Source: Candidatus Omnitrophota bacterium (GTDB lineage Bacteria; Omnitrophota; Gorgyraeia; Gygaellales; Profunditerraquicolaceae). From it: 35,497 bases of DNA. Both the position numbers and the translations under genes were made by a program. The stretch covers positions 1 through 35,497 of the forward strand of contig JBFZAQ010000203.1 of NCBI GenBank assembly GCA_041308885.1, read 5' to 3'. Below, piece after piece: positions 3,875 to 32,863 of this stretch (position 1 is the first letter of the stretch; every line of letters begins with the position of its first letter). The notes beneath the pieces were generated by a model that saw nothing but the letters and a program-made list of their open reading frames with translations, was not told where the DNA came from and did no database searches.

Positions 3875-3886
3875 CTTAGTCGCGGG

Positions 3887-6103: not shown

Positions 6104-6143
6104 CTAACAACTCCCCAATCTATAACTTAACTATTCCTCTCGC

Positions 6144-11083: not shown

Positions 11084-11218
11084 ATGTTTTGTGTAATGTG
11101 TTATGTTTAATGTGTAATGCTGGTGTAATGGTTTAATGTGTAATGGAAAAGAATAAATTCCATTACACATTATTTTGCATTAAACCCACATTACACATTA
11201 CACTTTACACATTACACA
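11084..11218. repeat. imperfect palindrome built from TGTGTAA-type heptamers
   Basis: TGTGTAA/TGTGTTA/TGTTTAA/TGTGTAA from 11090. The central perfect 12-bp stem is AATGTGTAATGG (11135-11146) pairing with CCATTACACATT (11160-11171). The right arm repeats CACATTACAC and overlaps the dCMP deaminase stop codon (11212-11214). Confidence 0.85.
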
Positions 11219-11706: not shown

Positions 11707-11936
11707 CTGAAGCGCCGCAGGCGCTGAAGAATTCAACTCGCCGTCATTCTGAGGCCGCAAGGCTTTCTTCGCGCGGGCGGCCGAAGAAACTGACGGCAGC
11801 CTAGATCCCTCGTCGCGCTTCCTGCCTGCCGGCAGGCAGGCGCGCTCCTCGGGATGAGGGAAACGTTAGCGGCGCCTCGGGATGACATAATATCGCTGCA
11901 CTCAGGACGACGCAATATCGCTGCGCAGGATAACAT
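11707..11936. repeat. composite GC-rich repeat block (family-B units plus the perfect 20-bp palindrome CCTGCCTGCCGGCAGGCAGG at 11821-11840)
   Basis: AGCGCCGCAGGCGCT hairpin at 11711-11725. CCGTCATTCTGAGGCCGCAAGG...GGCCGAAGAAACTGACGG at 11741-11797. The palindrome at 11821-11840 is flanked by CGCGCTT/GCGCGCT. It fills the glyA to dCMP-deaminase spacer. Confidence 0.85.
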
Positions 11937-14948: not shown

Positions 14949-14962
14949 CAGATCAACCAGTT

Positions 14963-15094
14963 AAATTACCAATGAGCCAAATCCCAATATCCAATGAATG
15001 GCCAATTTCCAAATCCCAATTGGACATTCCTGCCTGCCTGCCGGCAGGGGTTATTGGAATTTCATTGGGATTTGGAGTTTGAGATTTGGTCATT
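14963..15094. repeat. family-A element, copy A2, with internal CCTGCCGGCAGG palindrome (15037-15048)
   Basis: AAATTACCAATGAGCCAAATCCCAATATCCAATGAATGGCCAATTTCCAAATCCCAATTGGACATTCCTGCCTGCCTGCCGGCAGG, then the inverted arm TTCATTGGGATTTGGAGTTTGAGATTTGGTCATT. It overlaps the purE stop codon (15093-15095). Confidence 0.9.
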
Positions 15095-15569
15095 AACATC
15101 TAATTCTTGTCTTCTTGATCTTGGCCGCCATATCCTTCTTATAGTCTATCAACTTCGCCTGAATTGACCGGTTGGTAATACCTAGAATCGCCAGGGCGAA
15201 CAAGGCGGCATTCTTGGCTCCTGCCTTGCCGATCGCCATGCCCGCCACCGGTATTCCGCCGGGCATCTGAACCGTTGATAACAAGGAATCCAAGCCCTTT
15301 AAACTCGCAGTTTCTATAGGGATACCGATAACCGGTAACGTCGTATGCGCGGCAATTACTCCGGCCAGCGCGGCCGCCCCGCCCGCGGCGGCAATAAAGA
15401 CTTTAGTCCCCTTTTTCGATGCAATCTCTACGTATTTGGCTAATTCTTTCGGCGTGCGGTGCGCGGATAAAACTTTGGCCGTATAAGCAACCTTAAATTC
15501 CTTCAAGACATTAATTGCTTCTTGAACAGTATCTAAATCTGATTGACTACCCATGATGATGCTGATCAT
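15093..15569 (-). CDS. purE: 5-(carboxyamino)imidazole ribonucleotide mutase
   Basis: ISIIMGSQSDL...VLSAHRTPKEL...AAGGAAALAGVIAAHTTLPVIGIP. ATG 15569 has GGAGG 5 nt upstream. The track start at 15581 is a GTG, 4 codons further up. Confidence 0.95.
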   Translation of the reverse strand: MISIIMGSQSDLDTVQEAINVLKEFKVAYTAKVLSAHRTPKELAKYVEIASKKGTKVFIAAAGGAAALAGVIAAHTTLPVIGIPIETASLKGLDSLLSTVQMPGGIPVAGMAIGKAGAKNAALFALAILGITNRSIQAKLIDYKKDMAAKIKKTRIRC

Positions 15570-15583
15570 AACGCCCTCCACTT

Positions 15584-15796
15584 AAATGACCAATGACTAA
15601 ATCCCAATATCCAATGAATGACCAATTTCCAAATCCCAATTGGACATTCCTGCCTGCCGGCAGGCGAAACAAATCCGAATTACGATAATGTCAAATGACA
15701 AAATTCAAATACCAAAATAAATTCCAAATTCAAATTACCAATTTTTGTCATTTGGCATTTGTGCTTATTTTGGAATTTGTGCTTTGTCATTTGAAT
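15584..15796. repeat. family-A element, copy A3 (left module about 94% identical to A2 by eye), followed by a CAAATGACAAA-type palindromic variant
   Basis: 15584-15664 aligns with 14963-15048 apart from a few substitutions and a 4-nt gap. 15688-15796 carries TGTCAAATGACAAAATTCAAATACCAAAATAA and its approximate inverse TTATTTTGGAATTTGTGCTTTGTCATTTGAATTT. It fills the purD to purE spacer. Confidence 0.9.
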
Positions 15797-17158
15797 TTAA
15801 CTATCGAGCGTTCTTCTCCCAATATCCCTACGAAACTGCATCCCCTCAAAACTTAGCGCACCCACTGCCTTATACGTTGTATCTATGGCTTCTTGAATAG
15901 TATTACCTAATCCCGTAACCCCCAACACCCGCCCGCCATTAGTTACGTAATCTGCGTCCTGCGACCGAGCGCCAGCGAGGGAGTCCCGAGCCTCTATCGT
16001 CAACCCGCCTGAAGCGAGGGACGTCATGCGTCCTGCGTCTTTCCTTGTTCCGGCATGAAACACCACCACATCTTTCATCTTCGCGGCAGTATCCAGTCCG
16101 GCTATTACTTTACCCTTTGCATACTCTCCCGGATACCCTTTTGCGGCGCAAACCACGCATACGCAAGCGCGGCTATCCCAATTTAATCCTCCGCTCTTCA
16201 TAAATTTACTCACCCGGCCATCACTTACCGCCAACAGCGCTTCCACAATATCGGATTTAACCCGCGGCATAATGACTTCGGTTTCCGGATCGCCAAAGCG
16301 GGCGTTAAATTCCAAAGTTTTTGGGCCATCCTTAGTCAACATAATCCCCGCATACAAAGCCCCCTTAAATTCTATACCTTCCCGGCTCAAGCCATCAATA
16401 GTCCGATAAATCACTGTATCTAATATCTCTTTGAACAAAATCTCGGTTACTATAGGTGCAGGCGAATAAGCGCCCATGCCGCCGGTATTCGGCCCTTGAT
16501 CGTGGTCAAAAATACGCTTATGGTCCTGGCTAGCTACCAGTGGAATGACTCCTTTAGAATCAGTTAACACAATAATCGAGGCTTCCTGCCCGATAAGACA
16601 CTCCTCAATGATCACCTTATTGCCGGCGCTGCCGAATACCTTATCCTGCATTATCGTAACTACTGCCTGGCGGGCTTCGTCCACGGTTCTGGCCACTATT
16701 ACACCCTTGCCCGCGGCCAAACCATCAGCCTTAACAACACACGGTGCACCAGTTTGCTCAATATATTTTATGGCCCCGGGGGCAGTATCAAAAATCGCGC
16801 AGCGCGCGGTCGGAACTTTATATTTCAGCATCAGCTCCTTAGCAAATACCTTGCTCGCCTCCAGCTGCGCCGCTTTACGATTCGGTCCAAAAACTCTTAA
16901 GCCCTGCTTGCCAAACTCATCCACGATACCCAAAGCCAGCGGCCCTTCCGGCCCGACCACAGTTAAATCTATATGCTCGCGCCGCGCAAATTCCGCAAGC
17001 GCGGCAACATCATCCGCCTTAATATCCACGCACTCGGCCTGCTGAGATATCCCGCCATTCCCCGGCGCGCAGAATATCTTATCCACCAACTTAGACTGCG
17101 CAATCTTCCACACCAGCGCATGCTCCCTACCGCCTGAACCGACAACGAATATACGCAT
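15797..17158 (-). CDS. purD: phosphoribosylamine-glycine ligase (GAR synthetase)
   Basis: MRIFVVGSGGREHALVWKI..., ATP-grasp core, and C-terminal FHAGT...VTNGGRVLGVTG. It carries an in-frame insert of about 30 codons (see 15951-16040). Confidence 0.95.
   Translation of the reverse strand: MRIFVVGSGGREHALVWKIAQSKLVDKIFCAPGNGGISQQAECVDIKADDVAALAEFARREHIDLTVVGPEGPLALGIVDEFGKQGLRVFGPNRKAAQLEASKVFAKELMLKYKVPTARCAIFDTAPGAIKYIEQTGAPCVVKADGLAAGKGVIVARTVDEARQAVVTIMQDKVFGSAGNKVIIEECLIGQEASIIVLTDSKGVIPLVASQDHKRIFDHDQGPNTGGMGAYSPAPIVTEILFKEILDTVIYRTIDGLSREGIEFKGALYAGIMLTKDGPKTLEFNARFGDPETEVIMPRVKSDIVEALLAVSDGRVSKFMKSGGLNWDSRACVCVVCAAKGYPGEYAKGKVIAGLDTAAKMKDVVVFHAGTRKDAGRMTSLASGGLTIEARDSLAGARSQDADYVTNGGRVLGVTGLGNTIQEAIDTTYKAVGALSFEGMQFRRDIGRRTLDS
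15951..16040. repeat. intragenic in-frame repeat insert in purD bounded by TGCGTCCTGCG motifs
   Basis: TCTGCGTCCTGCGACC...GTCATGCGTCCTGCGTCT on the plus strand. It encodes DAGRMTSLASGGLTIEARDSLAGARSQDAD between the conserved HAGT and VTNGGRVLG blocks. Confidence 0.75.
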
Positions 17159-17198: not shown

Positions 17199-17669
17199 TT
17201 ATTTCCTGAAGTTAAATTCTTTTTGCGGCAATCTTTCTCTAATCAACTCTGAAATCTTATGCACAAACTCCTCAGCAATCTTCAAGGCGTCTTTAGCCTC
17301 TTTCATAGAACAAGGAATTTCAGGCTCGTAGATAAACCTGTTTCTTTTCTTCCTCATAAAATCATAATCATTAATAAGCTGCTTAAAGCTATCTCCTAAG
17401 ATTAAACTCGCGAATCTCACAACCGTCGCATGCTTATCCTTTATATCCGGACGGTAACCTTCAATAAACATAAGCGCCAGCCCGGAACGCAACATCGCAT
17501 TATACGCATAATTAAACGCGCATTCTTCGTCCTGGCCTAAGTTTCTTTTGGCAGTCTTAAGATCGACGTAAGCGCGCTTCAACAAATTAAGGATAGATCT
17601 ATCATCAGCAGGGCACTTCTTGATCAAACCATCCTTAAAAAGGGCTTCTTTTGATTCCTTATAAGCCAT
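17199..17669 (-). CDS. HEPN domain protein (putative toxin of a HEPN-MNT pair)
   Basis: A helical protein of about 156 aa with an ...MRKKRNRFIYEPE... block typical of HEPN-family proteins. It overlaps the upstream nucleotidyltransferase gene by 11 nt. Confidence 0.7.
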   Translation of the reverse strand: MAYKESKEALFKDGLIKKCPADDRSILNLLKRAYVDLKTAKRNLGQDEECAFNYAYNAMLRSGLALMFIEGYRPDIKDKHATVVRFASLILGDSFKQLINDYDFMRKKRNRFIYEPEIPCSMKEAKDALKIAEEFVHKISELIRERLPQKEFNFRK

Positions 17670-18234
17670 CTTCTTTACCGACCAGCATTATTTTGGGTCT
17701 CTTTAATAAATCCAAAATGAATCCGCTTCTTGCTGCCTTTTTCGCTTTGTATTCCTGCCAGGAATAAATTGTGGGGTTTATCTCTCTTTTTAGCTTCTTC
17801 TCCAAAATAGAAATCCTTTCATTCACGCAAGAGCTATCCTGATCACCGATAACCATAAGATCGATATCGCTGGCCGAATTTTCTTTTTTTGAGGCAAACG
17901 AACCATAGATGAAAGCGGTTTTTAAACCCTGAATCGATACCAAAGAATTCCTGAGGCTCGCCTCTACCCCGACCGTCTTGGAAACAATACTTTTTAATTC
18001 ATCAAACAAAGGATGGCTTCGGTTAAGGGAATAATAAAGAAGATTACCGACTCTCCGGGTCTTGAATAAATTATCCTTCTGGAATCTCAATAGTTCCCTG
18101 CGGATATTACCGGCAGAATATCCTAATACGCGCTGAAGCTCCCTTAAGTAATATTCCTGAAGCGCATTAGTAAAGAATAAGGCGAGCAGCCCCTGCCTGA
18201 TTTTCGATTTTGCAATATAAAGGCTATCCAGCAT
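17659..18234 (-). CDS. winged-HTH plus minimal nucleotidyltransferase (MNT) domain protein (putative antitoxin)
   Basis: YGSFASKKENSASDIDLMVIGD is the GS-X9-10-D-X-D minimal NTase signature. The N-terminal YYLRELQRVLGYSAGNIRRELLRF is wHTH-like. Confidence 0.8.
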   Translation of the reverse strand: MLDSLYIAKSKIRQGLLALFFTNALQEYYLRELQRVLGYSAGNIRRELLRFQKDNLFKTRRVGNLLYYSLNRSHPLFDELKSIVSKTVGVEASLRNSLVSIQGLKTAFIYGSFASKKENSASDIDLMVIGDQDSSCVNERISILEKKLKREINPTIYSWQEYKAKKAARSGFILDLLKRPKIMLVGKEDGL

Positions 18235-19437: not shown

Positions 19438-20451
19438 CTAAATCAACTGTACTTTCCTTGACCCCTTGACTACAGTGCCGATAATACCGGACTTTAAGCG
19501 TAAACTGGCTAATTTGCGCACTACCGCCTCAGCCGCGCCAACCCGCACAATAAGCACCATCCCTATCCCCATATTCAAAGTATGATACATCTCGTAATCG
19601 GCAATCGCGCCCTTCTCCTGGATCATGCGAAATATTTCCGGCACCGGCCAAGAACCTTTGCGGATAACCACATCCAGGTTATCCGGCAGGATACGAGCAA
19701 TCTTGTCGTAGAAGGCTCCGCCGGTGATGTGGGAGATTCCTTTAATGGTCGATAGTCGATAGTCTATAGTCGATAGTAAAGATAGAATTGGCTTGACGTA
19801 AATTCTAGTGGGTTTAAGTAATTCGGCGCTGTGATTTTTGAGTTCCCTTTCAGATAAAACCTTCCTCACTAAAGAAAATCCGTTGGAATGCAAGCCATTA
19901 GACTCCAGGCCGATCACGACATCACCGGGTTTGATGCCTGAGCCGTCGATAATCCTATCTTTCTCAACTGCCCCGACGCAAAATCCGGCGACGTCGTATT
20001 CGCCGTCACGATAGATATCCGGCATTTGGGCAGTCTCTCCGCCAATTAAAGCGCAGCCTGATTGCACGCACCCTTCGGTTATCCCGCCCACTACCTGAGA
20101 TAATACTCGCGGGGCGACTTTACTAAAAGCAATATAATCCAGGAAAAACAAAGGAACGGCCCCCACGCACAAAATATCATTAACATTCATGGCTACCGCG
20201 TCAATACCGATAGTATCGTGCTTGTTAGCCAGGGCAGCGATTTTCAACTTAGTCCCCACCCCGTCGGCCGAAGAGACCAGAATCGGATTCTTATAGGCGT
20301 TTTTATTAAAGGCAAAAAAAGATCCGAAACCGCCGATATTCTTCAGTACCTCCGGCCGGAACGACTTCTTGACCACGGATCTTAACCCGCGCTTAAACTG
20401 CTCCATCGCCGCAATATCCACCCCTGATTTTTTATAAGTTATACCGGCCAT
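19438..20451 (-). CDS. purM: phosphoribosylformylglycinamidine cyclo-ligase (AIR synthetase)
   Basis: ITYKKSGVDI..., VSSADGVGTKLKIA, GGETAQMP, HITGGAF. It carries an in-frame heptamer tract (19749-19785). Confidence 0.95.
   Translation of the reverse strand: MAGITYKKSGVDIAAMEQFKRGLRSVVKKSFRPEVLKNIGGFGSFFAFNKNAYKNPILVSSADGVGTKLKIAALANKHDTIGIDAVAMNVNDILCVGAVPLFFLDYIAFSKVAPRVLSQVVGGITEGCVQSGCALIGGETAQMPDIYRDGEYDVAGFCVGAVEKDRIIDGSGIKPGDVVIGLESNGLHSNGFSLVRKVLSERELKNHSAELLKPTRIYVKPILSLLSTIDYRLSTIKGISHITGGAFYDKIARILPDNLDVVIRKGSWPVPEIFRMIQEKGAIADYEMYHTLNMGIGMVLIVRVGAAEAVVRKLASLRLKSGIIGTVVKGSRKVQLI
19749..19785. repeat. intragenic heptamer tract TCGATAG x2, TCTATAG, TCGATAG, TAAAGAT in purM
   Basis: Read in 7-nt register. 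It encodes LSLLSTIDYRLSTIKG just upstream of the conserved HITGG block. Confidence 0.85.
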
Positions 20452-20485
20452 AAAATTATCCTTCTCTTAACTATCCTAACTGGCT

Positions 20486-20595
20486 AAATGACCAATAACC
20501 AAATCCCAAGCCCCAATGAATAACCAAATCCCAAGCCCAATTGGTAATTGGTATTGATGATTCATTGGGATTTGGAAATTGGAATTTGATCATTT
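20486..20595. repeat. family-A element, copy A4
   Basis: AAATGACCAATAACCAAATCCCAAGCCCCAATGAATAACCAAATCCCAAGCCCAATTGG, then the inverted arm TTCATTGGGATTTGGAAATTGGAATTTGATCATTT. It ends 1 nt before the purF stop codon. Confidence 0.9.
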
Positions 20596-20596
20596 A

Positions 20597-22060
20597 CTAC
20601 TGAAGATCCCCCTGTCCGCAACAGCGCGCTTCCAACGCGCACTTGCCTTGTTTCTTCTCCGGGGTAACCGGATATTTACCCGACCAACAAGCCGTGCAAT
20701 AATGCGAGGCCGGATGCTTAAAACAGGCTAACATCCCCTCAAGGCTCAAATACCCCAGCGTATCCACGTCCAGATACTGGCGGATCTTATCCAGCGATTC
20801 ATATTTATTGGCGATCAATTCCGAAGAACGGTTAAAATCAATGCCATAGAAGCAGGGAAATCGATGCGGCGGGCAAGAAATCATCAGATGCACTTCTCTA
20901 ACTCCGGCCTTACGCAAATTGCGCACCCTGATCTGCGAGGTGGTCCCGCGCACGATAGAATCATCCACTACCACAATTCTTTTTCCTTTGAGGACATCGG
21001 GCAACAAATTAAATTTAACCCTGACGCTTAGATCCCGGGTATCCTGAGCCGGCTGAATGAATGTCCTACCTACATAGTGATTGCGGATTATCCCCATCTC
21101 CAGCGGAATTCCCGATGCCGCGGAATACCCCAAGGCCGCGGAAAATCCGGAATCAGGCACCGGCACTACCAAATCTGCCTTGATCGGATGCTCCTTAGCC
21201 AGCTGCTCGCCGAGCCGGCGCCTTACCGTATGCACCGTCTGGCCGAAGACAATGGAATCGGGACGGGAAAAATAAACATGCTCAAAGATACAGGAAGCCC
21301 GGCGGTTATGCGGTCGCAACGCTTTAGGCTTGAGGCTGCGTAAGCCGTCATTAGTGATAATCACGGTTTCTCCCGGCTCTACTTCCCGCACATACCGCGC
21401 CCCGATCAGATCAAAAGCGCAGGTTTCCGAAGCTAAACAATAAGCCTTGCCTAATTTACCTAATGCCAAAGGACGAAAACCCAGCGGGTCGCGCACGCCG
21501 ATCAGCTGGTCGGTAGTCATGAACAACAAAGAATAAGCCCCTTTGATCCGCTTCAAGGCATAGAGTAAGCTCTGTTCAAAATTATAAGTCTTAGCCCGGG
21601 CCATCAGATGAATGATGATCTCGGAATCCGTAGTGGTTTGAAAGATCGATCCGCTGGCCTCAAGCGACTGGCGCAATTCTAAAGAATTCACCAAATTGCC
21701 GTTGTGGGCGATACAAATAGAGCCCTTGGCGTAATCAATCAATAGCGGCTGGGCATTTTTTAAAACGCTTGATCCGGTGGTCGAGTAGCGCACGTGCCCG
21801 ACTGCCTTGTCCCCTTTCATCTTATTTAAAAGGGCTTCATCAAAAACTTCGCTGACTAAACCGGTGGCTTTATGAACAGTCAGAACGCCCTTGTGGTTGG
21901 CCACAATTCCGCAGGCCTCCTGGCCGCGGTGCTGCAACGAATACAACCCCAGATACGTCAGCCAACTGGCTTGAGCATGGTTGCTGATCCCGAATAACCC
22001 GCAATATTCCCGCGGCTGAACACCCGGACTACTTCGCACATAGCGCGCTTTTCTCATCAT
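20597..22060 (-). CDS. purF: amidophosphoribosyltransferase (glutamine-PRPP amidotransferase) with propeptide and Fe-S cysteines
   Basis: ...EYCGLFGIS (Cys nucleophile after a leader of about 19 aa), LQHRGQE, HVRYSTTG, AHNGNL, TTDSE, PRTase loop VVVDDSIVRGTT, and C-terminal CTACWSGKYP. The 5' end overlaps the upstream paralogue by 32 nt. Confidence 0.95.
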   Translation of the reverse strand: MMRKARYVRSSPGVQPREYCGLFGISNHAQASWLTYLGLYSLQHRGQEACGIVANHKGVLTVHKATGLVSEVFDEALLNKMKGDKAVGHVRYSTTGSSVLKNAQPLLIDYAKGSICIAHNGNLVNSLELRQSLEASGSIFQTTTDSEIIIHLMARAKTYNFEQSLLYALKRIKGAYSLLFMTTDQLIGVRDPLGFRPLALGKLGKAYCLASETCAFDLIGARYVREVEPGETVIITNDGLRSLKPKALRPHNRRASCIFEHVYFSRPDSIVFGQTVHTVRRRLGEQLAKEHPIKADLVVPVPDSGFSAALGYSAASGIPLEMGIIRNHYVGRTFIQPAQDTRDLSVRVKFNLLPDVLKGKRIVVVDDSIVRGTTSQIRVRNLRKAGVREVHLMISCPPHRFPCFYGIDFNRSSELIANKYESLDKIRQYLDVDTLGYLSLEGMLACFKHPASHYCTACWSGKYPVTPEKKQGKCALEARCCGQGDLQ

Positions 22061-23468
22061 ATACTCCGCTCTTATCCGGCTCTCTGCCGGTCCAGCAATA
22101 GGTGCATAATTTTTCTCCCGGCAAACCGATTGCCGCGATCATGTCGGAAAGCTTCTGATATCGCAGGGTAGTTACCCCCAGATCCTTAGCGATCCAATCC
22201 ACCATCTTTTTATGCTGCGGGGAATCTTCGTCAAGATAAGGCGAAATATCCGTAGCATCTTTACCCTCAATGGCCCGAATAGCCCGTCGGGCTGCCAACT
22301 CGGCCAAGGTCCGGGTAGAACAATTGAATTTACACGGGTACATGAGCGGCGGACAGGCGATCCGCAAATGGATTTGTTTTGCCCCGCATTCCTTAAGCTT
22401 CTGAATGGTATAGTTCTTAAGCTGGGTCCCCCGGACAATGGAATCATCGCAAAAGACGATCATCTTATCTTTAATAATCTCCGGGACGGGGATCAATTTC
22501 ATCTTGGCGATTAGATCGCGCCGCTCCTGAGAGGCAGGGGTATAACTGCGATCAAATCCGGGAGTATATTTTACCAGGGGCCGGCGAAGCGGCACCCCCG
22601 ATTCCATCGCGTAACCTATCGCGTGGGCGGTACCCGAATCGGGTATCCCGGCAACCATATCCGCCGCGGCAGTATCATTCTTAGCCAACATCGCCCCGCT
22701 GCGCTCCCGGGCGACTTCAACATTAATTCCCTCATACGCGGAAGCCGGGACACCGGTATAGATCCATAAAAAAGAGCAGATCTGGTTAGTCTTATTCTCT
22801 TTGCGCCTTTGCTGAACGCCTTTTCCATCAATGAAGATAATCTCGCCCGGGGCAAGAAATTTCCGGATCTTAAAACCCAGATTATGAAACGCTGCCGACT
22901 CGCTGGCCACCGCCCAATCACCGCTTCTTTCCCCAACCACCAACGAAAAATACCCCAACCTATCCCGGGCGGCATATAGGCCTTCTTGAGTGAGTATCAA
23001 CAAGGAACAAGAACCCTCTATCCGGGAAAATAAATACTCTACCCCCTCAACAATGGACTTCCCCTTCAAGATAAGCTTGGCGGCCAACTCCGTCGGGTTT
23101 ACCCGGCCGTCAGCCATCTCGCTGAAAGACTTTCCGTCTTGATATAATTCTTCGGTCAGCTCCCGGGCGTTATCAATAAAACCGTCGGTAACTATGGCAA
23201 AGGAGCCGAATTTGGAATGCATGCACACCGGCTGCTCGTCGTTAGCGCTGATAACGCCGATCCCTTTATTCCCCGGCAAAGATCTGTAATCGCCGTAGAA
23301 TTTGGATTTAAACTGGCTGCCGCGGATATCATGGATCTTGCGTCTTAACTCGGCGCCCCACACGGCCATCCCGGCAAACTGCGTGCCTAAATGCGAATGA
23401 TAATCCGTGCCGTAATAGACATCTTCACCGCAATCTTTTTTTGCCACCACGCCGAATAATCCGCTCAT
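22029..23468 (-). CDS. PurF-like amidophosphoribosyltransferase paralogue with degenerate glutaminase domain (Ser in place of Cys1)
   Basis: MSGLFGVV aligns with (M)CGxxG. HRGQ is replaced by HLGTQ, the VRY(S/P)T Arg is missing (GVISAND), and HNGN is replaced by TDGF. The PRTase loop IVFCDDSIVRGTQ and the CTYCWTG Fe-S-type cysteines are retained. GGAG lies 7 nt before the ATG. Confidence 0.8.
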   Translation of the reverse strand: MSGLFGVVAKKDCGEDVYYGTDYHSHLGTQFAGMAVWGAELRRKIHDIRGSQFKSKFYGDYRSLPGNKGIGVISANDEQPVCMHSKFGSFAIVTDGFIDNARELTEELYQDGKSFSEMADGRVNPTELAAKLILKGKSIVEGVEYLFSRIEGSCSLLILTQEGLYAARDRLGYFSLVVGERSGDWAVASESAAFHNLGFKIRKFLAPGEIIFIDGKGVQQRRKENKTNQICSFLWIYTGVPASAYEGINVEVARERSGAMLAKNDTAAADMVAGIPDSGTAHAIGYAMESGVPLRRPLVKYTPGFDRSYTPASQERRDLIAKMKLIPVPEIIKDKMIVFCDDSIVRGTQLKNYTIQKLKECGAKQIHLRIACPPLMYPCKFNCSTRTLAELAARRAIRAIEGKDATDISPYLDEDSPQHKKMVDWIAKDLGVTTLRYQKLSDMIAAIGLPGEKLCTYCWTGREPDKSGVYDEKSALCAK

Positions 23469-23481: not shown

Positions 23482-24306
23482 TTATAATAATTCCCGAGCG
23501 TAAGCTACGCCGTTCTTAAAAATTAATGACCCGTCGGGTGCCCACCGGCATTTTTTACCCGTCCACCGGGGATGCTGGTTCGGTTGGATATGCCGCTCGG
23601 GATGAGGCATCAGCCCAAGGATCCTGCCGGTTTCATCGCAGATCCCGGCGATATGCTCAATAGCGCCGTTAGGATTAATGGGGTAAGAACCAGCCTGGCC
23701 ATGCTCATCGCAATACCGGAACACAATCTGCCCATTTTCCTTAAGCCGTTTTAAAACGAGCGCATCTTGAACCACAAACTTCCCTTCCCCGTGCGCCACC
23801 GGCAAATAGACAACTTCCGGCAAATCCTTTACCCACACGCATTTTACTTGCGTCTTGCGTCTTGCCTGCCTGCCGGTCAGGCAGGCGTCTTGCGTCTTCA
23901 AATAAACCCACCGATCCTCGAATTTCCCCGAATCATTGATAATCAGGCTGGCTTCCTGCCGAAGCTCCGGGTTACCCGGCAGTAATCCGCTTTTAACCAA
24001 TACCTGAAAACCATTGCAGATCCCGATGATCAGCTTGCCATCGGCAATAAAGCGTTTAAGCGGGCCCAAAAGCTTGCCCTTAAGCTCATTGGCCAGAATC
24101 TTACCCGCCCCCAGATCATCACCGTAACTAAAACCACCGGGAAATGCCAAAATTTGGAATTCATCCAGCTCGCGCGCTCCGGAAACCAGGGCATTAACAT
24201 GCACCAGATCGGAATCAGCGCCCGCCTGCTCAAAGGCAAACGCCGTTTCTTGGTCGCAGTTAGTCCCCGCGGCGCGCAATACGCAAACTTGAGGTTTTCT
24301 CGCCAT
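23482..24306 (-). CDS. purQ: phosphoribosylformylglycinamidine synthase I (glutaminase subunit)
   Basis: MARKPQVCVLRAAGTNCDQE..., nucleophile elbow GICNGFQ, and C-terminal MPHPER. I moved the start to ATG 24306; the track extension (to 24384) runs into family-B repeat sequence. It carries an in-frame palindromic insert (23847-23898). Confidence 0.9.
   Translation of the reverse strand: MARKPQVCVLRAAGTNCDQETAFAFEQAGADSDLVHVNALVSGARELDEFQILAFPGGFSYGDDLGAGKILANELKGKLLGPLKRFIADGKLIIGICNGFQVLVKSGLLPGNPELRQEASLIINDSGKFEDRWVYLKTQDACLTGRQARRKTQVKCVWVKDLPEVVYLPVAHGEGKFVVQDALVLKRLKENGQIVFRYCDEHGQAGSYPINPNGAIEHIAGICDETGRILGLMPHPERHIQPNQHPRWTGKKCRWAPDGSLIFKNGVAYARELL
23847..23898. repeat. intragenic in-frame element in purQ: CTTGCGT heptamers flanking a GCCTGCCTGCC/GG(T)CAGGCAGGC palindrome
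   Basis: In 7-nt register it reads CTTGCGT CTTGCGT CTTGCCT GCCTGCC GGTCAGG CAGGCGT CTTGCGT. It encodes KTQDACLTGRQARRKTQVK. The core matches the intergenic palindrome at 11821-11840, 15037-15048 and 15653-15664. Confidence 0.85.
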
Positions 24307-24345
24307 GTTAATATCTCGCCGCCATTCTAAGCAACACTCCCAATT

Positions 24346-24422
24346 CGTCATGCTGAGGCCGCAGGCCGAAGCATCCAACGCCATTCTGGATCCTTCGGCG
24401 CCTGCGGCGCCTCAGGATGACC
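24346..24422. repeat. family-B GC-rich hairpin pair
   Basis: CGTCATGCTGAGGCCGCAGGCCGAAGCATC followed by an oppositely oriented unit TCCTTCGGCGCCTGCGGCGCCTCAGGATGACC. It lies in the LOG to purQ spacer. Confidence 0.85.
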
Positions 24423-24438: not shown

Positions 24439-25122
24439 CTACATACCCTGCGGAATCCCTCTGTGATGATGCGCATAAAAACTCTTAATAATCTGCACCA
24501 CTTCCTTAGGATTGTCGGTAACGGTAAATATCTGCAAATCTTCCTGACTGATGTTACCGTTTTTTAACACCGTGGATTTTATCCATTCAATCATCCCTTT
24601 CCAATACTCTTTTCCCATGAGAATTACGGGAAAACGGGGTATACGTTTGGTCTGAATAAGATTGATAGCTTCGGTAAATTCATCCAGGGTGCCGTAACCG
24701 CCAGGCATGATCACAAAGGCTTTGGCGTATTTGACAAACATTACTTTACGGACGAAAAAATATTTAAACTCCAATAACAAGCCAACGAATTTATTCGACT
24801 TCTGTTCCATCGGCAGTTCAATATTCAAACCTATCGACTGCCCGCCGGCGCGCCGGGCCCCGCGATTGGCCGCCTCCATCATCCCCGGTCCGCTGCCGGT
24901 AATGATCGCGTAGCCTTCCCTGGCTAAAAGAAATGCGGTTTCTTCGGCTAACTTATAGTATTTCTCATTCGGCGCTTTCTGACGGCTGGAACCAAAAAAA
25001 GATACGGCCTTGCCGACCTTCGAAAGGATCTCAAACCCTTCCACGAATTCCGACATAATTCGGAATATCCGCCAGGTGTCTTCGGTGGTAAAATCATCCT
25101 TGAGCATCCTATGCTTAGCCAT
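24439..25122 (-). CDS. LOG-family (TIGR00730-type) nucleotide 5'-monophosphate nucleosidase / cytokinin riboside 5'-monophosphate phosphoribohydrolase-like protein
   Basis: GSGPGMMEAANRGA and PGGYGTLDEF signature motifs. ATG 25122 has GGAGG 5 nt upstream. The track start (25167) lies inside repeat copy A5. Confidence 0.85.
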   Translation of the reverse strand: MAKHRMLKDDFTTEDTWRIFRIMSEFVEGFEILSKVGKAVSFFGSSRQKAPNEKYYKLAEETAFLLAREGYAIITGSGPGMMEAANRGARRAGGQSIGLNIELPMEQKSNKFVGLLLEFKYFFVRKVMFVKYAKAFVIMPGGYGTLDEFTEAINLIQTKRIPRFPVILMGKEYWKGMIEWIKSTVLKNGNISQEDLQIFTVTDNPKEVVQIIKSFYAHHHRGIPQGM

Positions 25123-25135
25123 AAATACCTCCGGT

Positions 25136-25250
25136 AAAATTTCCAATGACCAAGTCCCAAATCCCAATGAATGACCAATTACTAAATCCCAATTGAATAT
25201 TGGTCATTGGGATTTCATTGGGATTTGGGGCTTGGAATTTGGTCATTAAA
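25136..25250. repeat. family-A element, copy A5
   Basis: AAAATTTCCAATGACCAAGTCCCAAATCCCAATGAATGACCAATTACTAAATCCCAATTG, then the inverted arm ATTGGTCATTGGGATTTCATTGGGATTTGGGGCTTGGAATTTGGTCATT. It begins 20 nt downstream of the purSL stop. Confidence 0.9.
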
Positions 25251-25270: not shown

Positions 25271-28213
25271 TTACCAGCGTAACGGTCTCTGCCAGGCTTC
25301 TTTTAACTGCGCGATATCGGCTTTTACGCACACTTTGCCGTTCAAACCATGGACGGTAAAATATTCCTTATCGGACAGGCAGCCGATTAACCCCAGCGGC
25401 ACGCCGGTTAACGCGCGCTCAAATTCTTTCTGCTTGCTCTTTTCCACTTCCACGATAAATCGCGAATTAGACTCCGAGAACAACAAAACATCATTTCTTA
25501 CGTCCTGCGTCTTGCGTCCTGCGTCTTGCGTCCGGTATGGGATTTCTCCGGCAAACATCTCCATCCCCAGCCCTCCGGCAAACGCCATCTCCGCGGCGGC
25601 CACGGCAATGCCGCCCTCCGAACAATCATGCAGGGAGCTGACCAACCCTAAGGCTGTAGCCCGGTTTAAGGCGGCAAAAATCTTAATCGCCACGCTACAA
25701 TCAACCCGCGGCACGCTGTTGCCCAGCGCCCCAAGCAAAGCATAATACTGCGAACCGCCTAATTCTTCTTTCGTCTCTCCGACGGCATAAATCAGGCCGC
25801 CGGGGCGCTTAGCGTACATGGAAACTGCCTTACGCGCGTCCTCCATCACCGCTATGGCGCTGATCAAGAGCGTCCCCGGGATGGCTAAGGATTTCCCGTG
25901 CTCGGTATATTCATTATATAAACTGTCTTTGCCGGATATAAAAGGCACGCCAAAACCCTTGGCAATATCATAACAGCCATAGGCCGCCCGCACCAAGGAA
26001 CCCAACCGGTCCGGTTTATCCGGATTTCCCCAACAGAAATTATCCAGTATCGCCGCCCGCTCCAGGGAACCGCCTACGGCAATAACCTGCCTCAAGGCCT
26101 CGTCAATACAAGATGCGGCCATCCAATACGGATCTATGCCCCCGAAACGAAAATTTATACCGCAGGAAATAACCAAGCCTTTTACCGATCCAAGTATAGG
26201 CTTAACCACCGCAGCGTCGGAAGGCCCGTCATTGACGATGCCCACTAACGGCTTGATCACCGATTGACCCTGCACTTCATGATCATATTGGCGGATAACC
26301 CACTCTTTGGAACAAATATCATAGCTAGACAACAGCTTCAACAGATACAAGGTCAAATCTTTTTTTAATGGTAATTTTGGCTGTGGATGCCGCTTTTGGG
26401 TAAAGACCGCGATTTTTTTAATATCCGGCAGGCCAGCGTGCAAGAAATCCATATCCAGATCGCCCACCTTGCGACCGGAATAAAATAACTCCAGGCGCTT
26501 GCTCCCGGTAAACTCCCCGATCACTGCGGCCTCAACGTTCTCGCCGGCGAACAAATCCAACAATTCGGCGAGGTTTTCCTTGGGCACGGATAAGATCATC
26601 CGCTCCTGCGACTCGGATATCCAAATTTCGGTATAAGAAAGCCCGCTGTATTTTAAAGGCGCCTTTTCTAGATCAACCCGCACTCCTAAATCCCGGCCCA
26701 TTTCGCCCACGGCGCTGGAGAATCCTCCCGCGCCACAATCAGTAATGGCGTCATATAAATCGCGGTCGCGGGCCTGCAGGATAGCATCCACCATCTTCTT
26801 TTCCTGAATCGGATTGCCGATCTGCACCGCGGAGCTGGAAATAGTTTCGGATTCGTGGGTCAACTCTCCCGACGAGAATGTAGCCCCGTGTATTCCGTCG
26901 CGCCCGGTCCGGCCGCCGACGGCCACGACTAAATCGCCGACCTTGGCGCGCTTAAAAGATTTATCCTTAGGCATGATCCCCACAGTGCCGCAATACACCA
27001 AAGGATTACCCACGAACCGCTCATCAAAAAGTATAGCCCCATTGACCGTGGGTATGCCCATTTTATTTCCGTAATCCCGCACTCCCGACACTACCCCTTT
27101 CATCACCCGCTTAGGATGCAGCGTGCCCTTAGGTAACTTACTAAAGGGATAATCCGGCGGCGCAAAACAAAAGACGTCGGTATTCAAGATCGGCTTAGCC
27201 CCCAAACCCGTGCCTAAGGGATCCCGGATAACCCCGCCTACTCCGGTATTAGCCCCGCCGAATGGCTCCAAGGCCGACGGATGATTATGGGTCTCTACCT
27301 TGAAACAGACATTATTCTCTTTATCGAACTCGATCACCCCGGAATTATCATGGAACACCGAAACGCACCAGGACTTATTCAGATCTTGAGTAACCTTCAT
27401 GATCGTGGATTTTAGAAGATTATCGATTAATCTAGGTTTTAGGTTATAGGTTATAGGTTTTAGCTTACTTAATAACTTTTCCCGATATTCTATTTTTCCG
27501 CGAAAGGTCTTATGCGCGCAATGCTCCGACCAGGTCTGGGCAATAGTTTCCAACTCGCAATCGGTGGGATTGCGCTTTATTTTCTGGAAGTATTTCTTAA
27601 TCATGCGCATTTCCGCTAGATTCAAAAACAACTGCCCAGTCTTACTAATTTCCTGCAGTTTCTTATCCGAGGCACCGATTAAATCTACGGTAATCAATTT
27701 GAATTTAGGCTCGCTTTTTTCTTTTTCCTGTCCCCTGTCCCCTGACCCCTGTCCCCTGACCACATGCTGTATCAATTTATTATACAGCAGCTTCTCCGTA
27801 ATCATCTTAAACTGCGCATCCGTAAGCTTGCCCTCAATTATATATTTCTTCGCCGTCTTAAAAGCAGCAACTCCGTCAATGCCGAGATCGCGAATTCCCT
27901 TAAGCGCTGATTCTTCCACCGGGTCCATGACCCCGGGGTTATAGGCTACCTCCACCACGCGGTCAGCGTTAATTCCGGAAGTTAAAATGGTAGGCCGATT
28001 GATATAGCAGTCTTGAGAAACGGGGTCAACTAACAGCTGGCTGCAGATTGTTGCAACTTGATTTTGGGCAAGCGTTCCGTCTAGAGTATAAACCTGGATG
28101 AACCGGACACCCTTAACCGCCTTTACGCCTAGATCAATAATGTCTTTTTTAACCCCCGCGCCAACCGCGTCAAAAATACCCGGCTTATCGGCAATTTCTA
28201 TTTTCCAAGACAT
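25271..28213 (-). CDS. purL: phosphoribosylformylglycinamidine synthase, PurS-PurS-PurL fusion (PurSL)
   Basis: Two N-terminal PurS-like repeats (IADKPGIFDAVGAGVKKDIIDLG...VRFIQVY and VAYNPGVMDPVEESALKGIRDLG...). The PurL core follows (SEHCAHKTF, VETHNHPS, GNPLVYCGTVG, two AIR-synthase-like halves). It carries three in-frame heptamer tracts. Confidence 0.9.
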   Translation of the reverse strand: MSWKIEIADKPGIFDAVGAGVKKDIIDLGVKAVKGVRFIQVYTLDGTLAQNQVATICSQLLVDPVSQDCYINRPTILTSGINADRVVEVAYNPGVMDPVEESALKGIRDLGIDGVAAFKTAKKYIIEGKLTDAQFKMITEKLLYNKLIQHVVRGQGSGDRGQEKEKSEPKFKLITVDLIGASDKKLQEISKTGQLFLNLAEMRMIKKYFQKIKRNPTDCELETIAQTWSEHCAHKTFRGKIEYREKLLSKLKPITYNLKPRLIDNLLKSTIMKVTQDLNKSWCVSVFHDNSGVIEFDKENNVCFKVETHNHPSALEPFGGANTGVGGVIRDPLGTGLGAKPILNTDVFCFAPPDYPFSKLPKGTLHPKRVMKGVVSGVRDYGNKMGIPTVNGAILFDERFVGNPLVYCGTVGIMPKDKSFKRAKVGDLVVAVGGRTGRDGIHGATFSSGELTHESETISSSAVQIGNPIQEKKMVDAILQARDRDLYDAITDCGAGGFSSAVGEMGRDLGVRVDLEKAPLKYSGLSYTEIWISESQERMILSVPKENLAELLDLFAGENVEAAVIGEFTGSKRLELFYSGRKVGDLDMDFLHAGLPDIKKIAVFTQKRHPQPKLPLKKDLTLYLLKLLSSYDICSKEWVIRQYDHEVQGQSVIKPLVGIVNDGPSDAAVVKPILGSVKGLVISCGINFRFGGIDPYWMAASCIDEALRQVIAVGGSLERAAILDNFCWGNPDKPDRLGSLVRAAYGCYDIAKGFGVPFISGKDSLYNEYTEHGKSLAIPGTLLISAIAVMEDARKAVSMYAKRPGGLIYAVGETKEELGGSQYYALLGALGNSVPRVDCSVAIKIFAALNRATALGLVSSLHDCSEGGIAVAAAEMAFAGGLGMEMFAGEIPYRTQDAGRKTQDVRNDVLLFSESNSRFIVEVEKSKQKEFERALTGVPLGLIGCLSDKEYFTVHGLNGKVCVKADIAQLKEAWQRPLRW
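25497..25533. repeat. intragenic heptamer tract CTTACGT, CCTGCGT, CTTGCGT, CCTGCGT, CTTGCGT in purSL
   Basis: Read in register. It encodes RTQDAGRKTQDV shortly before the conserved LLFSESNSRF block. It uses the same heptamer as the purQ and purD inserts. Confidence 0.85.
27434..27468. repeat. intragenic heptamer tract AGGTTTT, AGGTTAT x2, AGGTTTT, AGCTTAC in purSL
   Basis: Read in register. It encodes (S)KLKPITYNLKPR about 12 residues after the AHKTF motif. Confidence 0.85.
27727..27761. repeat. intragenic heptamer tract CCTGTCC x2, CCTGACC, CCTGTCC, CCTGACC in purSL
   Basis: Read in register. It encodes RGQGSGDRGQ at the boundary between the second PurS-like repeat and the PurL core. Confidence 0.85.
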
Positions 28214-29337: not shown

Positions 29338-29342
29338 TTTTT

Positions 29343-29375
29343 ACTCACAACTCACAACTCATAACTACTAACTAC
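29343..29375. repeat. heptamer tandem tract ACTCACA x2, ACTCATA, ACTACTA, ACTACAG
   Basis: Read in register. It overlaps the purB stop codon (29372-29374) and resembles the tract at 6144-6187. Confidence 0.85.
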
Positions 29376-30664
29376 AGTCCCAGCCGCTTATAAATCTTAT
29401 CCACATTACGCAAATAGTACTCCAGGGTAAAAATCTCCTCAATCTGCCTTTGGTTAAGGTGTTTGCGCGCCTGCGGTTCATCCAGCAGCAATTGCTTGAA
29501 ATCTGCCCCTTCCTTCCAGGAGCGCATAGCCAACCGCTGCACAATATCGTAGGCCTGAGTACGCGGCAACCCTTGCTGCATAAGCCTAATTAACACTCGC
29601 TGTGAAAAAATCAGCCCCTTGGTCTTAACTAAATTCTCCAGCATTGCCTCGGGATAAACTAATAGCCCGTCGACAACCTGGATAAGCTTCCGCAGCATAT
29701 AATCCAAGGCAATGGTTGAATCCGGCAAAATAACCCGCTCGCAGGAAGAATGGCTGATATCCCGCTCATGCCATAAAGCGACATCCTCTAAACCCACCAG
29801 CGCATTAGCCCGCACGATACGCGCTAATCCGCAGATCCGCTCGCAAACCACCGGATTACGCTTATGCGGCATGGCCGATGAGCCTTTCTGGCCTCGGGCA
29901 AACGGCTCCTCGACTTCCCGCACCTCGGTCTTTTGTAAATGCCTGATCTCGGTAGCGAACTTTTCCAATGACGCAGCCACTACCGCCAAAATACATAGAT
30001 ATTCGGCGTAGACGTCGCGCTGAATGACCTGCGTAGATATCGGCGCTGGGCGCAGACCAAGCCGGCGGCAAATGAACTCCTCGGCGCGCGGATCGATATT
30101 GGCAAAAGTCCCCACTGCTCCGGACATCTTTCCCACCGATACCGCTTCTTGGGCTTGCTTAAGCCTGGCGATATTACGCTTGGTTTCCTCGTACCACAGC
30201 GCCAACTTCAAACCAAAAGTCATCGGCTCAGCGTGAACGCCGTGCGTCCGGCCGATACAAACCATATCTTTATATTTACGGGCTTTCCGGGCTAACACCT
30301 CGCGCAGCTGCGAAAGATCCCTTAATAATATATCCGAAGCTTTTGCCAGCTGAACGCCCAATGTTGTGTCCAAAAGATCCGAAGAGGTAAGCCCGCGGTG
30401 AAAATATTGCGCGTCAGTTCCTATATATTGCGTGACATTAGTTACAAAAGCCACTATATCATGGTGGGTTTTAGCTTCAATCTTGCGAATCCGGCTGACA
30501 TTAAAGCGGGCCCGTTTGCGAATGCGGGATAAAGCCGAAGCGGGGATAATACGGCGGCCGACATAATATTCAATAACCAATAACTCTATGTCAAGCATGG
30601 TTTTAAACTTAAATTCATCCTGCCAAATGCGGGATATCTCGGGAAAGCTGTAGCGGTCAATCAT
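29372..30664 (-). CDS. purB: adenylosuccinate lyase
   Basis: A full-length fumarate-lyase-superfamily protein with the GSSAMPHKRNP signature. GGAGAGGAG lies upstream of the ATG. Confidence 0.95.
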   Translation of the reverse strand: MIDRYSFPEISRIWQDEFKFKTMLDIELLVIEYYVGRRIIPASALSRIRKRARFNVSRIRKIEAKTHHDIVAFVTNVTQYIGTDAQYFHRGLTSSDLLDTTLGVQLAKASDILLRDLSQLREVLARKARKYKDMVCIGRTHGVHAEPMTFGLKLALWYEETKRNIARLKQAQEAVSVGKMSGAVGTFANIDPRAEEFICRRLGLRPAPISTQVIQRDVYAEYLCILAVVAASLEKFATEIRHLQKTEVREVEEPFARGQKGSSAMPHKRNPVVCERICGLARIVRANALVGLEDVALWHERDISHSSCERVILPDSTIALDYMLRKLIQVVDGLLVYPEAMLENLVKTKGLIFSQRVLIRLMQQGLPRTQAYDIVQRLAMRSWKEGADFKQLLLDEPQARKHLNQRQIEEIFTLEYYLRNVDKIYKRLGL

Positions 30665-32101: not shown

Positions 32102-32863
32102 TCATCCGAATCTCCCGGTAATATAAGCTTCAGTCCGGCTGTCTTTAGGAGCAGTAAAGATATCCTGGGTCCGGGCATATTCAATCAATTCGCCCAATAG
32201 AAAGAAGGCCGTGTAGTCGGAAACCCGGGCCGCCTGCTGCATATTATGGGTAACAATAATGATAGTATAATCTTTCTTTAACTCAAGGATAAGCTCCTCA
32301 ATCTTAGCCGTAGAAATCGGATCCAAGCTGGCGCAGGGCTCATCAAAAAGGATAACTTTAGATTCTACCGCCAGCGACCGGGCAATGCACAAACGCTGCT
32401 GCTGGCCTCCGGAAAGCCCCAAAGCGCTATCGGTAAGCCGGTCCTTGACCTCCGGCCAAAGCGCGGCCTTTCTTAAGGCCTGCTCCACTTTAGCCTGAAT
32501 AAGCGAGCGGTCTTTTTCGCCGTTGACCTTTAAGCCATAACTAATATTATCAAAGATGCTTTTGGGAAACGGATTGGGCTTCTGAAAGACCATGCCGATG
32601 CGCCTTCTGACCTCCACCGCGTCAATATTCGTATCCAGAATGTCCCAACCGCTGTACAGGATCTTCCCGGTTACGCGGGTATTCGGGACCAACTCATGCA
32701 TGCGATTCAACAGCCGGATGAACGTGGACTTGCCGCAGCCCGAAGGCCCGATAATGGCTGTGACTTTATGCTTGCCGATATCCAGCGTGATATCTTTAAG
32801 GGCTTGCGTCTTGCCGTAATAAAAAAATACATTCCTGGCCTTAATCTCAATAGTATTATCCAT
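32102..32863 (-). CDS. pstB: phosphate ABC transporter ATP-binding protein
   Basis: Walker [10 protein letters not shown], signature LSGGQQQR, Walker B ILFDEP, and the PstB-typical N- and C-termini. Confidence 0.95.

Follow-up and report, generated by a model that had tools for sequence, protein, structure and literature searches.

A 21-nt GC palindrome nested in a heptanucleotide array is carried in frame in the purQ gene of an uncultured Omnitrophota bacterium

In cyanobacteria, Elhai et al. in 2008 (and also Mazel et al. in 1990) reportedly described the small dispersed repeats (SDRs), hairpin elements of 21-27 nt that were proposed to be the smallest mobile elements. In the 2008 work, the SDRs are said to be often embedded in tandem heptameric repeats (STRR) and to nest in their own copies. 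HIP1 is a site of SDR5 insertion, and the SDRs are restricted to the Nostocaceae (PMC5861425). The Rickettsia palindromic elements (RPE) have a size of ~150 bp, form ten families, each with its conserved peptide, and are confined to Rickettsia (PMC10969869). Here we analysed a contig of 35,497 bp from an uncultured Candidatus Omnitrophota bacterium (the whole contig is the window), in which purQ, the gene for the glutaminase subunit of FGAM synthase, carries a composite repeat tract: a resident heptamer array with a 21-nt palindrome nested in it. Our literature search found no report of such repeats in Omnitrophota.

The purQ open reading frame (ORF) spans 23482-24384 on the minus strand; its likely start, MARKPQ, is at 24306, giving an intact gene of 274 aa (23482-24306). 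The product matches the Pfam family GATase_5 (1.5e-80) and its best relatives are 65-70% identical, all those with a source name being Omnitrophota/Omnitrophica metagenome-assembled genomes (MAGs). The 52-mer CTTGCGTCTTGCGTCTTGCCTGCCTGCCGGTCAGGCAGGCGTCTTGCGTCTT, which an earlier note on this DNA had placed in the purQ frame, was confirmed at 23847-23898: it is present exactly, and a single ORF continues across it as KTQDACLTGRQARRKTQVK, interrupted by neither a stop nor a frameshift. On the coding strand (minus) the tract consists of AAGACGC AAGACGC, then CTGCCTGACCGGCAGGCAGGC, then AAGACGC AAGACGC AAG; it encodes KTQDACLTGRQARRKTQ and lies in the loop between the strand RWVYL and CVW of PurQ. 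The two upstream units (23885-23898) and the two downstream units with the final AAG (23847-23863) keep the same 7-nt phase on both sides of the insert. The 21 nt that interrupt the array (23864-23884) are a derivative, longer by 1 nt, of the perfect 20-mer CCTGCCTGCCGGCAGGCAGG. The GC palindrome covers 23864-23886, where GCCTGCCTG (23864-23872) pairs with CAGGCAGGC (23878-23886) around the loop CCGGT. As the note had also claimed, the tract is hairpin-capable: as RNA, the palindrome core forms a 9-bp stem of -31.9 kcal/mol, compared to -23.4 +/- 3.1 in shuffles (z = -2.75).

Both components recur in the window. The heptamer CTTGCGT has 11 copies against 3.75 +/- 1.97 in shuffles, and the palindrome arm GCCTGCCTGCC, with at most one mismatch, has 7 copies where 0.76 are expected; none of 100 shuffles reached 11 or 7, respectively. 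Besides the purQ copy, three spacers hold the palindrome, which makes four copies in the window. The copy in the spacer upstream of the dCMP deaminase gene (11821-11840) is the perfect 20-nt form, CCTGCCTGCCGGCAGGCAGG, and belongs to repeat family D13. The copy in the Sua5-purE spacer (15027-15048, TTCCTGCCTGCCTGCCGGCAGG) has an extra GCCT in its left arm and a truncated right arm, and forms the apex of a long hairpin with heptamer arms. The third copy, in the purE-purD spacer (15647-15666, TTCCTGCCTGCCGGCAGGCG), has a shortened right arm and adjoins heptamer-like repeats. Thus, the proposal that the palindrome is shared with spacers stands, but the 12-nt ranges originally given for the last two copies (15037-15048 and 15653-15664) are better drawn as above.

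In the outgroup PurQ proteins (Planctomycetota, Poribacteria, Elusimicrobiota and archaea), the stretch from RWVYL to C(V/I)W has just ~4-9 aa. This outgroup state comes from a genome-contig scan in which the matches listed were mostly outgroups, with 5 Omnitrophota. In alignment A1, measured from 'YL' to 'KCVW', the window has 18 aa and the shortest sequences (P0007 and P0059) 4 aa, an excess of 14 aa (42 nt). Counted from 'L' to 'C', the window loop has 19 aa compared to 11-13 aa in the typical Omnitrophota loop, and this excess of ~7 aa equals 21 nt, that is, the palindrome. The tract is thus an insertion relative to unrelated taxa; however, the 19 residues of the window loop are not wholly one new insertion. 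Note that one locus from a MAG labelled Planctomycetia (L002, 7368-7560) has a 40-residue loop at this PurQ site, ~35 residues above the other outgroups, built of an (AGAAACC)n array and a nested 43-nt unit that is tandemly duplicated.

The AlphaFold model of PurQ, made from 120 sequences, had a pLDDT of 85.3 and a pTM of 0.88. In this otherwise confident model the insert is predicted as low-confidence coil (pLDDT ~49) between the strands 132-138 and 165-170. The glutaminase domain of the solved FGAM synthetases in the PDB aligns with PurQ, and against these structures the model gave query-normalised TM-scores (TMq) of up to 0.82. Since the columns of the catalytic Cys/His/Glu residues (C97, H235 and E237) are invariant in the alignment, the enzyme is probably functional. 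Hydrophobic residues are depleted in the loops, where K makes up 19%, S 15%, and R and Q 11% each.

We surveyed the loop length in 112 orthologues, a hit set dominated by Omnitrophota. The length classes, spaced by ~7 aa (21 nt), were 4-6 aa (n=9), 11-13 aa (n=83), 17-22 aa (n=14) and 25-29 aa (n=3). Within the loops of 10-13 aa, residue identity was 43.6% at offset 7 and 20% at offset 8, compared to 5-10% at offsets 3-6 and 9, the pattern that a tandem unit of 7 nt (sometimes 8 nt) gives when translated; KSQKSKVKSQK, for example, is (AAAAGTC)n. The DNA of all 7 relatives checked, with plain arrays or with the palindrome, shows arrays at the purQ loop, and most Omnitrophota PurQ orthologues have a heptanucleotide array at the same codon position, each with its own unit: AAAACGC in L081 (also given as ACGCAAA/AAAACGC), CGAGCTA in L083, AAAAGTC in L085 and L209, AGTCGTC in L001, GGTCACC in L210 and AAAGCTA / AAAGCGA in L211. 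Moreover, three syntenic relatives, with the units ACGCAAA/AAAACGC, CGAGCTA and AAAAGTC, share the heptamer-palindrome-heptamer layout at the same codon. The length steps of ~7 aa and the 7-aa periodicity of the short loops therefore identify the heptamers as a resident, lineage-wide array and the palindrome as a nested insertion. The idea that the whole tract is a palindromic element is in this way reduced to its 21 nt, the CTTGCGT heptamers being the array that resides in most Omnitrophota orthologues.

These arrays turn over rapidly and in register. The orthologues P0002 and P0005, with ~94% identical flanking DNA, have (CCACAGG)x4 and (GCGCARG)x4 plus a 24-nt nested element, respectively, and the same positions differ in every unit. 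In many orthologue pairs that are 90-95% identical outside the loop, the loops are unrelated, expanded or collapsed: P0022 and P0026 (95% identity) have KNQKSKIKNQK and KVSKCQSVKVSKK, the latter with an 8-nt unit, P0047 and P0090 (93%) differ by +14 aa, and P0036 and P0091 (92%) have KSPVTGYRSPVK and RKAHDK. Short-loop orthologues are interspersed among close array-bearing relatives, as in the last pair, so the array can go without loss of the gene. Taken together, these comparisons point to a turnover in which units are gained and lost and variant units spread through the array.

The palindrome is more widely dispersed than the purQ locus. It occurs in the loop of ~9 of the 112 PurQ orthologues, where its reading frames differ (ACL..RQA, LPCRQAG, CLSGRQ, LPAGR), and in a loop-masked nearest-neighbour analysis its carriers were not mutual nearest relatives. 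In P0008 and P0086, which are 90% identical, it lies at different positions of the array. A metagenome scan found at least 127 copies in at least 120 contigs, those listed having 29-71% GC. Since 125 of the 127 listed copies are preceded by C, the unit is the perfect 20-mer. Some of the listed copies sit at the apex of longer inverted repeats, and others are inserted exactly within heptamer units or arrays (L089, L091, L094 and L140), as are copies in L220 and L230; in all, the palindrome was seen within tandem heptamers in the window purQ and in L083, L085, L089, L091, L094, L140, L212, L220 and L235. About a quarter of the listed copies are inside long ORFs, 23-33 of the 127 being in ORFs of at least 300 aa, and such ORFs hold 10 of the 20 copies of the 21-nt form but 23 of the 107 others (p = 0.012), an enrichment that fits selection for frame. 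In the IMG/VR viral contigs there were 42 copies in 35 contig stretches, many within heptamer arrays, and up to six in a single 29.5-kb contig. This distribution suggests that the palindrome is probably a very small mobile element.

Some individual contigs deserve mention. The IMG/VR contig of 29.5 kb (L232/L239/L240), L218 and L212/L241 are putatively viral, have 60-68% GC and carry 2-6 copies each, some of them as parts of larger repeats and some in GTGAGAG/GTTAGAG heptamer arrays. In another IMG/VR contig (L236, 2239-2330), the variable loop of a tRNA-Met(CAT) is the exact site of a perfect 20-nt palindrome. The sequence is nonetheless called by ARAGORN, as a 92-nt tRNA with a long variable arm, and it may be seen as the RNA counterpart of an insertion into a tolerant protein loop. 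Three unrelated contigs (L243 at 515, L181 at 24, and L172 at 665 and 840) also have the palindrome in tRNA-like sequences, where it lies at the D-loop/D-stem junction. The copies in L172 and L181 were dropped as residents of tRNA genes, being uncalled by ARAGORN and looking like truncated tRNA fragments that adjoin real tRNAs; the L243 sequence gave no ARAGORN call either. The L236 tRNA-Met is the only tRNA call that contains the palindrome.

In-frame arrays are not peculiar to purQ, since the window has others in PurSL (three), PurM, PurD and a DUF1318 protein. Among the tandem repeats of the window, period 7 gives 7-9 arrays, compared to 0-3 for each of the periods 5, 6 and 8-11; 17 outgroup loci (344 kb in all) have 3 period-7 arrays. 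Six of the nine clear window arrays lie inside genes: three in purSL and one each in purM, purQ and the DUF1318 gene. All of these are on the minus strand. The C-terminal purSL array at 25496-25535, (ACGCAAG/ACGCAGG)x5, belongs to the purQ unit family, encodes RTQDAGRKTQDV and is absent from L081, L003, L210, L211 and the Thermus PurL. The second, (CTAAAAC/CTATAAC)x4-5 at 27429-27468, is translated as KLKPITYNLKPR, and the third, the G-rich (GGGGACA/GGGGTCA)x5 at 27714-27763, as RGQGSGDRGQ. In purM, (CGACTAT)x4 at 19742-19780 encodes STIDYRLST; at this site L083 has (AGAGCTA) and L209 an 8-nt unit. The purD composite (15950-16041, minus strand) is an ACGCAGG-type array split by a different nested element of 57 nt (15965-16021); it adds ~26 aa that are absent from most aligned relatives, and the GARS_C match accordingly has 118 aa for a 92-position profile. 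A TACGCTA-type array (7410-7441) is in frame in the signal-peptide region of the DUF1318 lipoprotein.

Three observations belong beside these arrays. The 27714-27763 array is, on the coding strand, a G-quadruplex-type heptamer repeat within a coding sequence; the similar GGGGAYT repeats of Nostoc were described as intergenic (PMC4692102). The 57-nt purD element encodes SLASGGLTIEARDSLAGARS, and has within it two TCCCTCGC / CTCGG(G) half-sites; none of the aligned relatives has this element. A stretch of pstB (32792-32814), considered as a member of the CTTGCGT family, was dropped, because its units number just 1.4 and it codes for GKTQALKD, a native, conserved motif.

The same loops hold varied inserts in the relatives, near residues 75, 155, 250 and 895 of PurSL, ~228 of PurM and ~372 of PurD, and these are arrays, the purQ palindrome or other spacer-type elements. 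The PurSL of L083 carries (AAGTCACC)2, the palindrome and (CAAGTCAC)2.6, and, near residue 75, an in-frame tandem pair of [CAAGGACAC + palindrome]. Near the same residue, L209 has a palindrome nested within a palindrome, the whole 56-nt unit being tandemly duplicated, also in frame. L001 carries longer spacer-type palindromic elements in frame. One unit family may recur at several loci of a genome: ACGCARG in purQ, purSL and purD of the window, CGAGCTA in purQ, purM and purSL of L083, and AAAAGTC in purQ and purSL of L085 and L209.

How does this locus compare with the described systems? As the SDRs do, the element here combines a short hairpin (a 20-nt perfect palindrome with 21-nt variants) with a position within heptamer arrays, and it nests in itself in the PurSL of L209. 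Unlike the SDRs, which are known only from Nostocaceae and lie mainly outside conserved genes, it occurs in Omnitrophota and viral contigs, and its composite is translated in core enzymes; the two are set apart here by lineage and description. With the RPE it shares the dispersed, hairpin-capable repeat that is carried in frame in unrelated metabolic genes as an extra peptide compatible with the fold (PMC10969869); here, the palindrome is in frame in purQ, in the PurSL of L083 and L209, and in several PurQ orthologues. It differs from the RPE in that the purQ palindrome has 20-21 nt (~7 aa), its frame varies among orthologues with no conserved peptide module, it is nested in a heptamer array, and its host is an Omnitrophota, not Rickettsia; we saw no hint of kinship in sequence, although the two were not compared directly. 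Since insertion, shared palindrome, hairpin, coil loop and intact catalytic residues come together, the likeness to RPE drawn in the earlier note is valid for how the tract behaves, as a repeat that the protein tolerates in the form of extra peptide; it does not extend to membership, given 20-21 nt against ~150 bp and the other lineage. The cyanobacterial SDR/STRR are the closest analogue of the purQ composite, which would work like both the RPE and the SDR/STRR and belong to neither family.

Other systems are more distant. REPs are extragenic, imperfect palindromes with a conserved 5' tetranucleotide. The palindrome resembles the REP/BIME elements, which are mobilised by REP-associated tyrosine transposases (RAYT), in being short, GC-rich, present in many copies and inserted without obvious target duplication, but copies here are also found in genes (purQ, PurSL) and tRNA genes, and no RAYT was found among the 30 window ORFs scanned with Pfam. 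Yeast mitochondria have the GC clusters of var1. Sponge mitochondria have repetitive hairpin-forming elements (RHE; PMC2800124). Such clusters and RHE are similar in being small GC-rich hairpins that invade AT-richer genomes, including coding regions in frame, and differ in their organelle genomes, their greater length and their lack of association with heptamer arrays.

Regarding the arrays themselves, among the long simple repeats of many bacteria, those with a heptanucleotide unit are the most abundant, which was attributed to polymerase slippage (Mrazek 2007, as cited in PMC4679880 and PMC4692102). Known examples are GGGAATC and GGGGAYT in Xanthomonas/Nostoc (PMC4692102) and TAACTGA in Beggiatoaceae (PMC4679880). 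As here, they are tandem 7-nt units in few copies, strongly variable between close relatives and sometimes in inverted pairs, for which slippage was proposed. The published accounts place them between genes and call them under-represented in coding regions (PMC4692102, PMC4679880), although a few Beggiatoaceae TAACTGA arrays lie within ORFs and give 7-aa repeats (PMC4679880); here, in contrast, 6 of the 9 window arrays are genic; conserved enzymes carry them in internal loops, and many genomes have them at orthologous sites. The tandem repeats of Borgs also evolve fast, add disordered hydrophilic segments to ORFs and occur at similar places in homologues (PMC9879509). As regards disorder, the PurQ loop is modelled as coil with low pLDDT and has a disorder-promoting composition. 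However, the Borg ORF units have lengths that are multiples of three and give perfect amino-acid repeats (PMC9879509), whereas the units here have 7 nt, occasionally 8, so that the frame is kept only by the quantised total length. Moreover, the host proteins here are cytoplasmic core enzymes.

We think it rather probable that the tract arose from a slippage-prone resident heptamer array and a very small palindromic element nested in it, under selection for frame, absence of stops and hydrophilicity. The tract would then represent non-adaptive repeat DNA in two layers, which occupies a surface loop of PurQ that tolerates it and is translated with the protein into a peptide that would have no function of its own. 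The first layer, an array of a tandem 7-nt unit (AAGACGC here), would have been in the loop since early in the Omnitrophota clade, gaining and losing units quickly by slipped-strand events, with mutated units spreading through it (concerted evolution) and units now and then copied between arrays of one genome. The second layer, the 20-nt perfect GC palindrome, is probably mobile and would have inserted into the array without obvious target duplication; the purQ copy has one extra base (21 nt), and therefore preserves the reading frame. Selection would let survive only net lengths in multiples of 3, which would explain the ~21-nt (7-aa) steps of loop length, and survivors would also be stop-free and hydrophilic (K, S, R, Q, T). 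The outcome would be a disordered loop that leaves the glutaminase fold and the catalytic triad undisturbed.

Several points weigh against this explanation. No unit-number polymorphism was seen in L081/L082, L085/L086 and L083/L084, pairs of near-identical contigs from different samples (100% identity in the first pair and 99.98% in the second, and no indels in any of the three), so that ongoing slippage is not directly observed. Local slippage alone is also insufficient for a unit family present at several loci, which needs copying between loci or a shared generator. Regarding the palindrome, in 100 perfect copies tested for target-site duplication, direct flanks of at least 2 nt were not enriched; under a looser test, 10 of 140 unique copies had flanking direct repeats of 6-14 nt compared to 0.4 expected, a result that fits both duplication and insertion into an array. 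Since no clear target-site duplication appears in bulk, we infer its mobility from distribution only. Moreover, no transposase, RAYT or reverse transcriptase was found among the 30 window ORFs scanned with Pfam. The PurQ tree is star-like at 72-79% identity, and therefore independent and ancient shared insertions are not cleanly separable for every copy, nor are the insertions datable. The tract is known here from DNA alone, not from mRNA or protein. Finally, ~90% of the PurQ orthologues keep an enlarged loop, and with such retention a long loop could be useful.

If the peptide is a by-product, the arrays and palindromes could act in the nucleic acid, as recognition, structural or processing sites. 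An mRNA hairpin might influence stability or make translation pause, a repeat-binding protein might attach, or the signal might be one of the DNA; the repeats would then stay in genes because the signal is required at that place. The hairpin is more stable than its shuffles (see above), the 20-mer stays perfect across contigs of 29%-71% GC and viral contigs, one unit family recurs at several loci per genome, and heptamer repeats of Beggiatoaceae that lie immediately upstream of start codons have been suggested to bind a regulator (PMC4679880). However, the coding palindromes of the relatives have decayed by uncompensated mismatches and bulges, and the array unit varies between close relatives and between loci. 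In close relatives the arrays are down to 4-6 aa with the gene kept, no Rfam match was found anywhere in the window at gathering thresholds, and no U run follows the hairpin. On this balance, we consider a nucleic-acid role unlikely.

The retention of the enlarged loop by ~90% of the orthologues would also be expected if the loop were adaptive, a disordered segment tuned by tandem repeats that might modulate PurQ-PurL-PurS assembly or solubility. The strong bias to K, S, R, Q and T, the predicted disorder and the similar loops of several other pur enzymes agree with this, and in Borgs, the parallel case, ORF repeats create disordered regions under selection (PMC9879509). Against it, the sequence is unconstrained except in composition, the loop is absent in close relatives, the same loops take unrelated junk-like elements that are also found in spacers, and units of 7-8 nt are not multiples of 3, so unit-wise tuning would frameshift the gene. 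An adaptive loop therefore seems to us distinctly improbable.

A period fixed at 7 (sometimes 8) with a free unit sequence, as well as the presence of one unit family at several loci per genome, including a purD site that is array-less in most aligned relatives, could instead reflect active machinery that mobilises elements or writes repeats. In one version, cycles of insertion and excision of small palindromes through a 7-8-bp staggered cut would leave tandem 7-8-nt footprints; in the other, a template-directed polymerase would copy a genome-specific unit to several loci. The same 1-2 units often stand symmetrically on both sides of a palindrome (in the window, twice in L083, and in L220, L230 and L214), at least 5 different nested element families all lie within arrays, and the ten copies with flanking direct repeats (lengths of 7, 7, 8, 8, 10, 10, 13, 14 and 14 nt) exceed the expectation. 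But ~93% of the perfect copies have no flanking direct repeat, most arrays are element-free, no candidate enzyme was identified, and insertion into pre-existing arrays explains the flanks equally well. We give machinery as the generator of the arrays very little credence. In its bold form, that Omnitrophota and some of their viruses host an active system, moving palindromes with a 7-8-bp stagger or copying from a template and so writing tandem 7-8-nt footprints, we hold the idea to be a long shot. If it were true, the heptamer arrays would be scars of element traffic, with units copied between the loci of one genome, and the tolerant loops of core enzymes and the tRNA variable loop would be visible landing pads. 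Arrays as footprints of such traffic would also explain the general excess of heptanucleotide repeats in bacteria, long noted and unexplained.

Palindromes and short repeats are known to trouble assemblers, but a chimeric or mis-joined tract at the palindrome is scarcely credible here, because the same layout appears at the same codon in assemblies made independently, by other pipelines and from other samples (JGI, Logan, NCBI MAGs), the tract leaves the ORF intact and in frame, and the cross-sample pairs L081/L082 and L085/L086 agree as given above.

On the explanation we favour, a slipping resident array with a nested palindrome, units that are not multiples of three would persist for long in essential, conserved enzymes, the frame being held only by selection on total length in 21-nt steps, and very small repeats could colonise tolerant surface loops of core enzymes. 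Loops that bear repeats would then be natural markers of insertion-tolerant positions in a fold. The pairing of a very small mobile element with heptamer arrays, described only for Nostocaceae, would extend to an unrelated uncultured phylum and to viral contigs, and many filled, empty and replaced sites are available for studying the movement of 20-nt elements. In practice, such tracts inflate apparent divergence, can be taken for a frameshift or a misassembly, and will lead astray any annotation of Omnitrophota MAGs that relies on alignment.

The spacers of the window are also rich in repeats. Most of the larger ones are long AT-rich hairpins in which both arms are degenerate heptamer arrays, of the CCAAATC/CAATGAC type and, elsewhere, of the GGTTAAC and ACATTAC types (1626-1755, 14947-15096, 15567-15800, 20469-20596 and 25120-25250; also 3691-3878 and 11086-11222). 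Two of them carry the GC palindrome at the apex, and at these junctions the syntenic relatives have tightly packed or overlapping genes. Another element dispersed in spacers, GTCATYCTGAGGCGCCRCAGGCGCCGAAGRAT, has copies in several orientations at 7485, 11743, 11876, 24347 and 24410, and the PurSL of L001 translates in frame GTCATCCTGAGGCGAAGCCGAAGGATC, which is similar to it. The start codons of dCTP deaminase and Band7 have related TACTCAC / AACTCAC arrays in the spacers upstream of them (6135-6185 and 29342-29376), recalling the start-proximal TAACTGA arrays of Beggiatoaceae.

Finally, purQ belongs to a purine cluster on the minus strand: purE, purD, a HEPN/nucleotidyltransferase pair, Band7, purM, purF, a purF paralogue, purQ, a LOG-family gene, a purS-purL fusion, Band7 and purB, followed by phoU-pstBACS. 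The HEPN / nucleotidyltransferase pair (17199-18234), which is toxin-antitoxin-like, is inserted between purD and Band7; in the 6 syntenic relatives that cover the junction, the interval from Band7 to purD (or from purM to purD) has no such pair annotated. The two tandem purF-like genes, at 20597-22060 and 22029-23468, overlap by 32 nt. The first is canonical, and the second has no Pribosyltran Pfam match and has indels of its own. The relatives L081/L083, L085 and L209 have one type, the other or both.

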